This document shows positions 19,978 to 24,599 of a DNA stretch of 64,000 nt, in pieces; position 1 is the first letter of the stretch, and each line of letters opens with the position of its first letter. Source of the stretch: a phage; NCBI GenBank assembly GCA_036253495.1, contig GCA_036253495.1_4125.1. One strand, 5' to 3'. The notes under the pieces are model-generated. The model had not been told where the DNA came from. It made no database searches and saw nothing but the letters and a program-made list of their open reading frames with translations. Both the position numbers and the translations under genes were made by a program.

Positions 19978-22125
19978 ATGTTAAACATTACACGTATAAC
20001 AATGAGGAATTTCTTTTCCTTTGGTAATGCACCACAAGTTATTGATTTAAATGGTGCTGACATATCTTTAGTACTCGGTCAAAACAATGATGCTGTCATT
20101 GAAGGTGGTGATAGTTCTGGTCGTCGTAACGGTGTAGGTAAAAGTGCAATTATTCAAGGTCTTGTTTTTGGACTATTTGGAAAAAGTATTGGTAACGATA
20201 TTAAAATTCCAAACTTAGTTAATAAAACAAATGCTAAAAATTGTGAAGTTACCGTTGAGTTCGAGAAAGACGGTATACAATACCTTGTTGAGCGTGGGCG
20301 TAGTCCCACATATTTCAATTTCATCACTCTAGGTCAGGACAATAAAGTTCTCGATGAATCAAGAGGTGAAAAGAAAGATACACAAGAAGATCTAAATGAA
20401 ATTCTAGGAATCTCTCAATTACTTTTTGAGCACATTGTAGTACTGAATGCTAACGTTGAACCTTTCCTTGCTCTTTCTTCACAGAAACAACGTGATATGA
20501 TTGAAGAGCTATTAGGTATTACCCAATTAACAGAGAAAGCTGAACTGTTAAAGGATATGAACAAAGAGTCAAAACGTTTAGCTGACCAAGAGAAGTTTAA
20601 AATTGAAACAGTTGCAGCAAGTAATGAACGCATTCAACGCAGCATTGAAACCTTACAGGAACAGGCTAATAAGTTTGAAATTGATAAGGCTAATAGAGTG
20701 CAAAAACTAAAAAGTGAATTGGAAGTATACAGTACTTTTGTATTTTCTGATTTATATGCTGCTGCTGAAGAGAAAGAAGAAGCACTTCTACACATCTCTA
20801 AACGTTTACAACTCGAACGTAGAGTTCAAGAACTTGCAGTGAAATATGATCAGTACGATAGAGAACTAGCCACTAATAAAAATATTATTCAGCATAGTAT
20901 CGATAAATTAAAAACTATTGATATTGAATCTGAATTAAAAAACCATGAAGAAATGGAACTGTGGAAACAACTAGAATCTATCTTAAAAGATAATCAGTTG
21001 CAAAAGAATTTCAAAACACAGAAACTAAATTCACTAAATCTTTCGTTGAATGCTCATATTAAATCTCTTACAGCAGAAGAAGAGAAATTAAAATCAGTTG
21101 AGGATAGTAAATGTCCACTTTGTTTATCAGAGTTGGAGCATAATGAGCATGGTAATGGTATAAAAGATAAGATTAATGATACTATTCGTCTAATCAGAGA
21201 AAATATAAGTAAGGTTGAGTTGGAAATTGCAACACTATCAGATGAAATCAATGCAATTGAGATATTTGATATGCCCCCTAAACCTGTAACTTTCTATAAT
21301 ACCCTTACCGAAGCCCAAATGCATGACCATAAGCTACAAGAACTTATTAAAAAGAGTGAGGAAGAACAAATTAACATCTACCGTGATGAACTAATGTCTT
21401 CTTATGAGGCTCTTGATGCATTAGAAGTAAAGGAAGTTCCAGATGCGTTGAATAAATCAGAAGTTAAAGAGTTAGAAATGACTTTTAACTCACTTACTCA
21501 ACAACTTGAACGCGAAATGAACACAACTAATACGTTTATTAGTCAGATTAATACTTTAACAACCGATTCGTTGGTTCCTATTGATTATACTGACTTCAAT
21601 AACCTTGAAAAATTGGCTAATCACCAAGATTTCTTAGTTAAACTATTGCTCAATAAGGATAGTTATGTTCGTAAACGTATCATTGAACAAAATATCTCAT
21701 ATTTGAACTCCAGATTGCAGTACTATATTGATATGTGTGGTTCAGAACACAATGTGGTCTTCTTGAATGACCTTAGTGTTGAGATTGAGAAGAGTGGACA
21801 GTACTTTGACTATAAACAATTGAGTCGTGGAGAACGAACACGTGTTAATATTGCATTATCATGTGCTTTCCGCGATACTTATGAATCATTATATCAAAGT
21901 ATTAATATTCTTATCATAGATGAGATGATAGATCAGGGTCTTGATTCAAGTGGTGTTCTAAGAGTATGGTCAATCTTCCAGGATATGGCTGCTGTACGTG
22001 GTAAAAACGTATATGCAATATCTCACAGAGAAGAATTACTATCTAAAACAGAAAAAATCCTTAAAGTGGTAAAAGAAGACGGTTTCAGTACTGTTGAATA
22101 TGCTACTCTTGATGATATTTTCTAA
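19978..22125 (+). CDS. 46: Rad50/SbcC-like ATPase (T4 gp46-like)
   Basis: N-terminal Walker A (GRRNGVGKS), long coiled-coil middle, C-terminal signature/Walker B region (LSRGERTRVNIAL...LIIDE). Confidence 0.85.
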   Translation: MLNITRITMRNFFSFGNAPQVIDLNGADISLVLGQNNDAVIEGGDSSGRRNGVGKSAIIQGLVFGLFGKSIGNDIKIPNLVNKTNAKNCEVTVEFEKDGIQYLVERGRSPTYFNFITLGQDNKVLDESRGEKKDTQEDLNEILGISQLLFEHIVVLNANVEPFLALSSQKQRDMIEELLGITQLTEKAELLKDMNKESKRLADQEKFKIETVAASNERIQRSIETLQEQANKFEIDKANRVQKLKSELEVYSTFVFSDLYAAAEEKEEALLHISKRLQLERRVQELAVKYDQYDRELATNKNIIQHSIDKLKTIDIESELKNHEEMELWKQLESILKDNQLQKNFKTQKLNSLNLSLNAHIKSLTAEEEKLKSVEDSKCPLCLSELEHNEHGNGIKDKINDTIRLIRENISKVELEIATLSDEINAIEIFDMPPKPVTFYNTLTEAQMHDHKLQELIKKSEEEQINIYRDELMSSYEALDALEVKEVPDALNKSEVKELEMTFNSLTQQLEREMNTTNTFISQINTLTTDSLVPIDYTDFNNLEKLANHQDFLVKLLLNKDSYVRKRIIEQNISYLNSRLQYYIDMCGSEHNVVFLNDLSVEIEKSGQYFDYKQLSRGERTRVNIALSCAFRDTYESLYQSINILIIDEMIDQGLDSSGVLRVWSIFQDMAAVRGKNVYAISHREELLSKTEKILKVVKEDGFSTVEYATLDDIF

Positions 22126-22137
22126 TATAATGAATAA

Positions 22138-22161
22138 AGGGAGCCTTAGCTCCCTTTTTTT
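22138..22161 (+). terminator. rho-independent terminator after gp46-like gene
   Basis: AGGGAGC-CTTA-GCTCCCT hairpin followed by TTTTTTT. Confidence 0.6.
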
Positions 22162-22637
22162 ATATCTAACATGTTTAATTTGCCGTCCTTAATAAGCTTC
22201 CTAGCCTGTTTTACACGAGCAGTAGTGTTGCTACAAGGGACAACTCCTAACCCTTCCAGAATCGCGTTTTGCTGCGTTGCTGGGAGCCTTTTAAACTTAT
22301 TAACATCCACAGTTAATGCCGTGTGATGAATCACTTGCTCTTCTGGTGGAATATTATTGTTCTTTTCAAGATAATCTGCCAGATTTCTTAGTACTTCATG
22401 AAGAGGTTTATCAGTTAAATGACGCAAGTATCGATTGAAAGAGTTCTGCACCTTACCTTCCCATGCGTTAACCTCATTTTGTAGAACTTCTCTACAATGC
22501 TGGTTTTCGAAGTGATAGTGGTCGAGTACTGGTTTCTTAATCGGTTCCTTGATTATAGGATCAATACCTTTTTGCTTTTTTAATAATTCATTTCTGTACG
22601 TAGCAGCTTCCTTACTATCTTTAAGTCTTCGTTTCAT
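22146..22637 (-). CDS. Endonuclease VII-like (His-Me finger) protein lacking the canonical Zn-ligand cysteines
   Basis: 163 aa; LDHYHFEN and NAWEGKVQNSFNR align with T4 Endo VII LDHDHELN and NAAEGQMKHKFNR; only one Cys present. Confidence 0.45.
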   Translation of the reverse strand: MKRRLKDSKEAATYRNELLKKQKGIDPIIKEPIKKPVLDHYHFENQHCREVLQNEVNAWEGKVQNSFNRYLRHLTDKPLHEVLRNLADYLEKNNNIPPEEQVIHHTALTVDVNKFKRLPATQQNAILEGLGVVPCSNTTARVKQARKLIKDGKLNMLDIKKGS

Positions 22638-22731
22638 AATGTGCCTTAGATCTAAGTTAGTTTATGAAATATTTATGAAATACATTCCTAAGAAATTTTT
22701 AAGTACTTTTTTATAAAAAAGATTAGATATT

Positions 22732-22761
22732 TTGAGACACTTTTAAATTGCGTGCTATAAT
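22732..22761 (+). promoter_or_regulatory. strong sigma70-type promoter (TTGAGA-18 nt-TGcTATAAT) firing into ORF-free region
   Basis: -35 TTGAGA at 22732-22737, extended -10 TGCTATAAT at 22753-22761. Confidence 0.6.
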
Positions 22762-22766
22762 GTTTC

Positions 22767-23246
22767 ATGTAGTACTGACAATCCTGTTGAATGCAGAAAT
22801 GCATATAAATTAGAACCTAATCCACTCGAAAATGTAGAGGGTAGATGAGCAGTTCAACAGTGCGATGAGCAAAAGAAACCCGTTAGATGTGGGCATATTA
22901 TGAACCCCTCACGGCGACACGGCTCAATAAAGAACTCCGATAAGCATACAGAGAGTTCCTCGATAGATGTATAAGGATCGCACCTTACCAGATATGCTAA
23001 GGGAGTTTGATGATTCATTTCATTAAACAGCCTGAAGTTTGATTGTATAGACTTTCAGGTGAGTGTCAGGATGTTTAAGACTGACGACCGTTGCACATGA
23101 CTGCGATAGAGAGAAACAGAGCAACCCGCTTTCGTTCTTAATATTTTTTACAATATAATTACGTTTAAATTTTAAGAAATTCGCAATACAATAATACCGA
23201 TGCCATCAGCGTCAAGAAACAGAGACTTAATTGTCTCTTTTTTATT
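22767..23246 (+). ncRNA. candidate non-coding RNA (about 480 nt) between promoter and terminator; identity unknown
   Basis: No ORF longer than about 25 codons with an RBS on either strand; several stem-loops (e.g. CCTGAAGT...ACTTTCAGG, GTCAG...CTGAC); ends at hairpin AGAGAC-TTAATT-GTCTCT plus T-run at 23220-23246. Confidence 0.3.
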
Positions 23247-23473
23247 ATCTTCATTCCCCTGCGGGGGGATGAAATATCCTCAACAAATCCCGTCAAGTAT
23301 TAAATCATTTAAAGTTCTTTATAATTATATTAAAATGAATATGAGTTAACGTAGTTAACGAATATTCTTCAGCTAACGAATGAAATGAGTTAGATGAGTT
23401 CAATATAAATCAAATGAATTCCTTCAAGAATAAATCTTTTAAGATCATAATTTCTTTCATCTACTTTGTAAGT

Positions 23474-23519
23474 AAAAACCCAAAAAAACAAAAACAAAAA
23501 ACCAGCAACAATGTGCTGG
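23474..23519 (-). terminator. rho-independent terminator (minus strand)
   Basis: Minus-strand hairpin CCAGCA-CATTGT-TGCTGG followed by a long T-run (plus-strand A-rich tract 23474-23501). Confidence 0.6.
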
Positions 23520-23532
23520 CTTCTTATGAGTA

Positions 23533-23711: not shown

Positions 23712-24599
23712 TTATTTCTTCTGGGTTTGAGAAGAGAAGCTGAGATCGAAAAAATGAGTAGGGTCATACTTTAATCCAGTAAGTTCCCATTGATGCTGAC
23801 ATTCAATACATTCAACTTCCATTGTATGCGATACACCAATCTCTAGTACTTCATCCATTTTCTCTCTGATTTGCTTGATCACTTCTTTTGATTGAGTACC
23901 TAACCATTCACTTATGAATTTCTTATCTGATACTTCATCACCATCAGGAGTAATTACCTTATCAATAACTCCAGCAATCATATCAAAGTTTAGTTGTGCC
24001 ATGTTTTCAAATACTTCAGAAAACATTTTAATTTTATCATCTTCAGAAATATCAATAGTACTTTCAAGATACTTAGTTTTTTGCTGTTCAGCTAACATAC
24101 GTTGAGAAAACTCTGAATATTCTTTCCAAGTAAGTGGTCTGAACTGAAGAGACAAACCATTATTAAGATCAATACTAGGAATTTCAGTAAAAGATTCTGC
24201 CGTTTCCAATAGATAAGAAAGATCACGTTCAAAACGGCCTTCTTTGGAACATGATGGACATACGACATTGACATCATAACTGGTTTCTTTGGATGCTAAC
24301 TTGATAGCAATAAGAATTTGCTCAACATCATTGACAAAAAGCTCATCTGCGTTTAGAATGTTTGGTACACAGTTTTCGATAACAGATGACACTGCACTAC
24401 CATTGAGTAACATATCAGGTGTATTGAGCATCATTTCGTCACGAGCACTACGAGCACAGACACCACATTTAATGCCTTTGCTCCCCAATACACCATCTTT
24501 GTACTGGAAAATGTTGTTAGTGACGAGTTTAGTACTAATTTCTTCGATTTTTGTGTATTTTGCTAACGGGTTCATTGACATAATACTTTCTCCATGCAA
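23712..24599 (-). CDS. hypothetical protein with three CxxC pairs (possible Zn-binding)
   Basis: 295-aa ORF; CGVC, CPSC and CIEC motifs; no recognisable NTPase motif. Confidence 0.6.
   Translation of the reverse strand: MHGESIMSMNPLAKYTKIEEISTKLVTNNIFQYKDGVLGSKGIKCGVCARSARDEMMLNTPDMLLNGSAVSSVIENCVPNILNADELFVNDVEQILIAIKLASKETSYDVNVVCPSCSKEGRFERDLSYLLETAESFTEIPSIDLNNGLSLQFRPLTWKEYSEFSQRMLAEQQKTKYLESTIDISEDDKIKMFSEVFENMAQLNFDMIAGVIDKVITPDGDEVSDKKFISEWLGTQSKEVIKQIREKMDEVLEIGVSHTMEVECIECQHQWELTGLKYDPTHFFDLSFSSQTQKK

Follow-up and report, generated by a model that had tools for sequence, protein, structure and literature searches.

The stretch of phage DNA analysed here, called the window, comprises 64,000 nucleotides (GenBank assembly GCA_036253495.1, contig GCA_036253495.1_4125.1) and carries on its minus strand the complete coding sequence of an endonuclease VII (Endo VII) homologue of 163 amino acids plus stop codon (22146..22637), delimited from the ORF list and assigned by PHROG 423, AlphaFold2 (AF2) and Foldseek. 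The 4.6 kb around this ORF are 99.4% identical to Escherichia phage A4 (ON286972.1), a 355.5-kb Asteriusvirus belonging to the Rak2/121Q-like jumbo myoviruses, and about 79–80% identical to 121Q, PBECO4 and related phages. The A4 counterpart of the ORF, A4_591 (99.4% identity), is annotated as 'DNA endonuclease VII', and its GenBank relatives carry the endonuclease VII annotation as well. The convergent neighbour is a gp46-like gene for an SbcC/Rad50-type ATPase (19978–22125, plus strand), beyond which lie genes for a gp47-like phosphoesterase and a gp55-like late sigma factor; the other neighbour is a T4-type baseplate hub gene (23712–24599, minus strand), and portal, scaffold and protease genes are found on that side. 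The order portal, structural genes, baseplate hub, small ORF, Endo VII, gp46, gp47 and gp55 is common to Asteriusvirus, Eneladusvirus and Alcyoneusvirus, and this conservation in three genera speaks against a mobile homing endonuclease. The genomic company is of the same kind as that of the T4 Endo VII gene, consisting of T4-type gp46 and gp47, the late sigma factor gp55, and genes for head and baseplate. Klebsiella phage K64-1 has an extra hypothetical gene of 1032 nt between the Endo VII and gp46-like genes (L006 4992–6023), which is absent from A4, PBECO4 and an Erwinia phage. An HMM search of all six-frame ORFs of the window matched the Endo VII gene alone, so that a second, canonical Endo VII was ruled out for the 64 kb.

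Two short elements flank the gene. Between the convergent gp46-like and Endo VII genes, and overlapping the stop codon, a consensus scan detected the GC-rich hairpin AAAGGGAGC-CTTA-GCTCCCTTT (22136..22157, no strand assigned). It has a clear T run on the plus strand and a weak tail, ATTCATTATA alone, on the minus strand, and it is thus terminator-like for the gp46-like gene. On the minus strand, 40 nt upstream of the Endo VII ATG, the octamer CATAAATA (22670..22677) shares seven of eight bases with the T4 late-promoter consensus TATAAATA, and PBECO4 has exactly TATAAATA at the aligned place. This octamer is a possible, weak candidate for a late promoter.

The 0.9-kb gap between the Endo VII start and the next ORF (22638–23532) carries no annotation in A4, PBECO4 or the Erwinia phage, and its conservation across genera is higher than that of the surrounding coding DNA. 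Conservation and covariation point to a structured-RNA gene on the plus strand (22732–23300), with a body of about 470 nt and long invariant blocks. A predicted extended −10 promoter of the sigma-70 type (TTGAGA-18-TATAAT with an upstream TG; 22732–22761, plus strand) lies at its start. The alignment of copies places an intrinsic terminator, a covarying stem followed by a T run, at 23221–23238 (plus strand), and a further conserved hairpin extends to about 23300 on the same strand. Most of 70 Rak2-like phage records have copies at four to five blastn places per genome, and the RaK2/K64-1 group gave a single short blastn match. Using 15 distinct copies, RNAalifold predicted 89 pairs, 38 of which show compensatory double changes. 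In this alignment 95.3% of the cells were paired, against 37–45% when the partners were slid by 1–3 columns, and the covariation score was 0.343 against about 0.05 in the controls; none of 500 shuffles reached the observed value. Invariant G-U pairs fix the RNA strand as plus. The element contains no conserved ORF, no tRNA or tmRNA and no meaningful match to Rfam 15, either at the gathering score or at E ≤ 10. A resemblance of the block ACAGAGCAACCCGCUUU to the RNase P CR-IV/V region was dropped, as it had no Rfam match.

A second A4 copy of the RNA element was located after the sigma-70-family gene A4_181 (L018 24932–25458, plus strand; about 320.9–321.5 kb of ON286972.1). A divergent copy in K64-1 (L025 1031–578, minus strand; about 191.5–191.9 kb) lies beside gp304, an 'RNA polymerase sigma factor' gene, and underlies very small annotated ORFs of doubtful status. 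The Endo VII gene of K64-1 has no such copy upstream, and the adjacency of the two features therefore appears incidental. The element has the appearance of an undescribed structured RNA that Rak2-like jumbo phages have in several copies and that the host polymerase transcribes; it might act early as a regulatory or decoy RNA, or supply primer transcripts at origins, as T4 oriF/oriG do.

To place the protein itself in relation to T4 Endo VII (gp49), we relied on profiles, since single-sequence searches were too weak for this link: phmmer of the window protein against the PDB returned only a chance sulfotransferase match, and phmmer of T4 gp49 against the window ORFs returned none. PHROG 423, 'endonuclease VII', matched the protein end to end (E 3.9e-34). 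A profile of 22 Rak2-like homologues matched the T4 Endo VII chains in the PDB (E 3.6e-6; residues 32–125 against T4 33–131), and hhalign against T4 gave a probability of 95% and E 3.4e-8 over 111 columns (T4 16–134). The Endo VII of Vibrio phage Vp_R1, which has all four cysteines (Cys4), bridges the two proteins, being 30% identical to the window protein over 138 aa in BLASTP (E 2e-16) and matching T4 at E 1.9e-23. The Pfam model PF02945 (Endonuclease_7) scored the window protein at 18.3 bits (E 0.0022), below its 23.6-bit cut-off, as compared with 73.6 bits for the canonical Vp_R1 protein and 31.7 bits for an rV5-like one; the model was evidently trained on Cys4 members. PF09124, the Pfam C-terminal dimerisation domain, gave no match in the window protein even at E ≤ 10, and the profile and fold alignments run through T4 residues 96–134 and beyond. 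The resemblance to Endo VII goes far beyond what chance would give, and the homology is full-length, apparently taking in the helical dimerisation arm and the C-terminal domain as well as the His-Me core. The original prediction, made from the sequence, of an Endo VII-like His-Me finger protein was thus borne out by PHROG 423, the family profile, hhalign and the PDB fold matches.

The catalytic residues of T4 could all be located in the window protein. The MAFFT, BLASTP and hhalign alignments all place T4 D40, H41, H43, N62 and E65 at D39, H40, H42, N57 and E60, and T4 R54 at R49, and these six residues are invariant in the 22 Rak2-like sequences (57–90% identity). They lie within the beta-beta-alpha-Me (His-Me finger) core, residues 36–70 (22428..22532, minus strand), which was delimited from the alignments and the AF2 model; the core motif quoted earlier, LDHYHFEN...NAWEGKVQNSFNR, occurs in the ORF as quoted. 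The four zinc ligands of T4 are all replaced. C23, C26, C58 and C61 correspond to D26, I29, Q53 and V56, and this mapping is identical in three independent alignments (MAFFT with n = 156, BLASTP against Vp_R1 and hhalign against T4), in agreement with the earlier claim that the structural-zinc cysteines are absent. The codons were read directly from the window DNA on the minus strand: D26 at 22560–22562, I29 at 22551–22553, Q53 at 22479–22481 and V56 at 22470–22472. The alignments and codons define the former zinc knuckle as residues 22–35 (QKGIDPIIKEPIKK; 22533..22574, minus strand), in which D26-P27-I28 is invariant throughout the Rak2-like clade. Residues 71–163 (22149..22427, minus strand) form a helical arm (helix 79–93, with the motif LRNLADYLE), a conserved IHH motif (104–105) and a C-terminal helical domain; they align with T4 residues of about 76–134, and the fold comparison extends the match to the whole T4 chain.

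The protein contains two cysteines, C48 and C135, and not one as had been counted before. Position 48 varies between Val, Cys and Ile across the family, being a core position on strand 2, and position 135 is Gly or Glu in close relatives. We also inspected all columns in which 5% or more of the aligned family sequences have Cys: position 37, like position 48, alternates with Val, Ile and Thr, as core positions do. A shifted zinc site was rejected on these grounds, and because rV5-like proteins do not conserve their four-Cys pattern. The profile alignment proposed with the original prediction as a check thus found the Endo VII relationship to be real and no cysteines at shifted positions.

Structure prediction, also proposed at that stage, was carried out with AF2 on a 149-sequence alignment, as a monomer and with metals not modelled. 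The model has a mean pLDDT of 96 and consists of a helix (8–21), the knuckle loop, two strands (36–40 and 48–53), helices 54–70 and 79–93 and three C-terminal helices. It has the layout of a His-Me finger, a beta-hairpin followed by a helix, which bear H40 and N57. In Foldseek, three T4 Endo VII chains were the only significant PDB fold matches (TM 0.54–0.68, 157–162 columns, 20–23% identity); against 1e7l_A the TM values were 0.66/0.68 over 157 columns (E 1.2e-6). Among the predicted viral structures of BFVD, the significant named matches (E ≤ 0.001) were all Endo VII-type proteins. The model thus matches T4 Endo VII along the whole chain, which makes the window protein a structural counterpart of T4 gp49 over its full length and more than a carrier of an HNH motif. 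Because AlphaFold omits metals, the model is no proof that the fold is stable without zinc.

To determine how widely the zinc ligands have been lost, we searched 1.84 billion cluster representatives exhaustively with a profile and obtained 581 relatives at E ≤ 0.001. The best 150 of these 581 were aligned together with the window protein, T4, Vp_R1, an rV5-like protein, Marinomonas phage CB5A and Curvibacter phage P26059A (n = 156). An intact tetrad was found in 11 of the 156 aligned sequences, as Cys4 in eight and as Cys3His in three. The remaining 145 lack it: 59 have no Cys or His at the four sites, 63 have one, 23 have two and none has three. On a neighbour-joining tree rooted on T4, which is a rough tree, all Cys4 and Cys3His sequences fall beside T4 and the ligand-less sequences make up the remainder, consistent with the tetrad having been lost once or a few times, anciently. 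Zinc position 1 is always Asp (79) or Cys (74) in the family alignment, commonly followed by Pro-Ile; at position 2 Thr and Leu predominate, position 3 is usually occupied by His, Asp, Ser or Gln, and position 4 by Val, Ala, Ser or Thr.

The catalytic D, H, H, N and R are nearly invariant in the zinc-ligand-less representatives, and the equivalent of T4 E65 is Leu, Ile, Met or Val in 86 of the 145 (about 60%). This suggests that E65 may be dispensable, or the chemistry different, in part of the clade; the window subclade keeps Glu at this position (E60). One member of the family, protein P0187 (446 aa), has an insertion of about 290 aa directly after the LDH of the catalytic motif, which starts with Cys, ends in ...VVGN and is followed by CHQNGH, a layout that would be expected of an intein in the active site.

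The homologues of Vequintavirinae (rV5-like), Colwellvirinae (Marinomonas phage CB5A) and Curvibacter phage P26059A are all annotated as endonuclease VII and are 35–43% identical to the window protein. Like it, they have no complete tetrad and show the knuckle G-[ILV]-[DC]-P-I; unlike it, many have a relic Cys at position 1, in several the E65 equivalent is replaced, and the rV5 type has extra cysteines at other positions. In the rV5-like Endo VII of Shigella phage CM1 (L002 3914–4519), for instance, the four zinc sites are D, L, S and T, and cysteines occur in DPILC...KPCLDH...RCRGVLSQCTN, that is, at window positions 30, 37, 48 and 55. The nearest representative to it, P0161, keeps three of those four, and the CM1 pattern is probably not a relocated zinc site.

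The comparison with T4 Endo VII (gp49; PDB 1EN7, 1E7L, 2QNC, 2QNF) shows a protein of similar length (157 aa in T4 against 163 aa) whose chain runs, as in T4, from an N-terminal helix through the knuckle, the beta-beta-alpha-Me core and a long helical arm to a C-terminal helical domain. Both have the same catalytic D/H/H/N/E and Arg, and the LxNLxxYL and IH motifs are conserved. The window protein differs from gp49 in the exchange of C23/C26/C58/C61 for D/I/Q/V, in lacking 4 residues between the knuckle and strand 1, in a further deletion in the beta-hairpin loop, in an identity of only about 21–28%, and in Pfam models that score below threshold. The Vp_R1 Endo VII (L005 1393–1848), unlike the window protein, keeps CxxC...CxxC and reaches 73.6 bits with PF02945 and 36.4 bits with PF09124. 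This canonical Cys4 gene, of 151 aa, is unannotated in RefSeq NC_070978.1 (about 99.8–100.3 kb).

The window gene is under strong purifying selection, with a dN/dS of 0.06 against PBECO4 (dN 0.079, dS 1.31), synonymous sites being saturated in more distant pairs. Its product is probably a functional, zinc-independent junction resolvase of the Endo VII type (X-solvase): the zinc-free state would follow from the absence of the ligands, and junction cleavage from homology. Of the two readings offered by the original prediction, a zinc-independent variant of the junction-resolving enzyme or a derived nuclease, the former is favoured by the full-length homology, the retained catalytic residues, the dN/dS, the lack of another homologue in the window and the synteny.

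By homology with T4 gp49, two chains would form an intertwined dimer, in which each beta-beta-alpha-Me site (D39, H40, H42, N57, E60 and R49) would hold one catalytic Mg2+ and nick one strand close to the branch point. Replicated, recombining DNA would in this way be cleared of Holliday junctions and other branches so that the genome of about 355 kb can be packaged. In T4, a Zn(Cys)4 site ties the N-terminal knuckle to the beginning of the catalytic helix, and the window protein has no metal ligands there. Its fold may instead be held by side-chain packing, with a polar contact between D26 and Q53, a hydrophobic one between I29 and V56 and the invariant P27-I28 in the knuckle. Across the clade, the metal would correspondingly be replaced by polar contacts between positions 1 and 3, hydrophobic ones between positions 2 and 4 and a proline-stiffened knuckle. 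The T4 mutants C23S and C61S are reported in PMC6083498, which cites Giraud-Panis et al. 1995, to be inactive and to fail to bind DNA. Loss of the zinc site is thus not trivially tolerated and the clade must have compensated for it; its size and conservation indicate that it did. We found no biochemistry for Rak2-like or rV5-like enzymes in a literature search, nor, in the same search, which had most subscription journals outside its scope, any report of a zinc-ligand-less Endo VII clade.

Several other readings of the gene have to be weighed. One is that the His-Me nuclease is active but no longer resolves junctions, serving instead, for example, in nicking, in homing or against the host. This would agree with the Pfam score below threshold, and the Endo VII catalytic motif has indeed been recruited by other enzymes, among them F-CphI, a homing endonuclease (PMC6083498), and Hpy99I, a restriction enzyme (PMC5714182). 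Those enzymes, however, share the catalytic module only and carry extra DNA-binding domains, whereas the 163-aa window protein is T4-like along its whole chain, including the dimerisation helices. A homing role would moreover sit poorly with a locus that, unlike a mobile gene, is syntenic across genera beside recombination genes, and we regard a change of role as quite unlikely. Even less can be said for a catalytically dead or weakened DNA-binding remnant kept for a structural or regulatory role. It would accommodate the abolition of DNA binding that follows destruction of the zinc site in T4, as reported in PMC6083498, and the changed E65 equivalent in about 60% of the zinc-ligand-less representatives, by which parts of the wider clade may differ in chemistry. 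The whole Rak2-like subclade nevertheless keeps the five catalytic residues and R49 without exception, and this, like the dN/dS of 0.06, is unexpected in a pseudo-enzyme; we consider such a remnant very improbable.

The reading to which we give the least credence is that the protein keeps a structural metal by means of alternative or shifted ligands, the ligands having been swapped and the metal not lost. Position 1 is always Asp or Cys and position 3 usually His, Asp, Ser or Gln, and the Asp/Asp and Asp/His pairs that result in many relatives could bind a cation; the rV5-like homologues, in addition, have four differently spaced cysteines. Against this, the Asp, Ile, Gln and Val of the window protein provide at most one good ligand, and its two cysteines are no substitute, C48 alternating with Val/Ile and C135 not being conserved. 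No zinc-ligand-less sequence in the alignment has more than two Cys/His at the four sites, and the rV5-type cysteine pattern is not kept even in the nearest representative. The zinc-independent junction resolvase remains the reading that we prefer for the window gene. For the family, we think it rather likely that a large Endo VII clade, comprising all Rak2-like jumbo phages, the rV5-like phages, some Autographiviridae and many metagenomic lineages, works without the structural metal, the zinc knuckle having been replaced once by an Asp/Cys-Pro-Ile knuckle packed on polar and hydrophobic residues at the start of the helix.

Precedents for such a state exist in the superfamily. The HNH domain of Cas9 and the colicin DNases are examples of HNH nucleases without a zinc knuckle. 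Many His-Me fingers lack one, their core being stabilised without the treble-clef zinc knuckle, and Endo VII has been described as a zinc-knuckle member (PMC5714182). The knuckle-less nucleases differ from the window protein in having an unrelated architecture and function, and none of them is junction-resolving, whereas the described members of His-Me group 13 (Endonuclease_7), T4 Endo VII and Hpy99I, both contain a structural zinc. The literature on Rak2-like phages lists the gene simply as a T4 Endo VII homologue (PMC5259590; PMC7824862), and Iyer et al. found T4 endo VII-like resolvases and RuvC to be nearly complementary across jumbo phage groups (PMC7824862).

The significance of these findings is modest, since zinc loss is familiar in the superfamily and neither the predicted function nor the view of junction resolution is changed. 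The loss of the ligands with the active site kept explains the under-detection of these proteins by the Pfam Endonuclease_7 model. A compact, cysteine-poor and possibly oxidation- or chelator-resistant resolvase may also be of use for structural study or as a mismatch- or junction-cleavage reagent. If the zinc-independent reading is true, these would be the first zinc-free junction-resolving His-Me enzymes and a natural experiment in the loss of a structural zinc, and zinc limitation or thiol oxidation in the infected cell might leave them unaffected. Among phage junction-resolving enzymes T4 Endo VII is the textbook case, with a zinc site that is treated as integral to the fold. If most of its jumbo and rV5-like relatives dispense with the ligands yet keep the active site, the zinc would be a lineage-specific stabiliser and not a requirement of the family.
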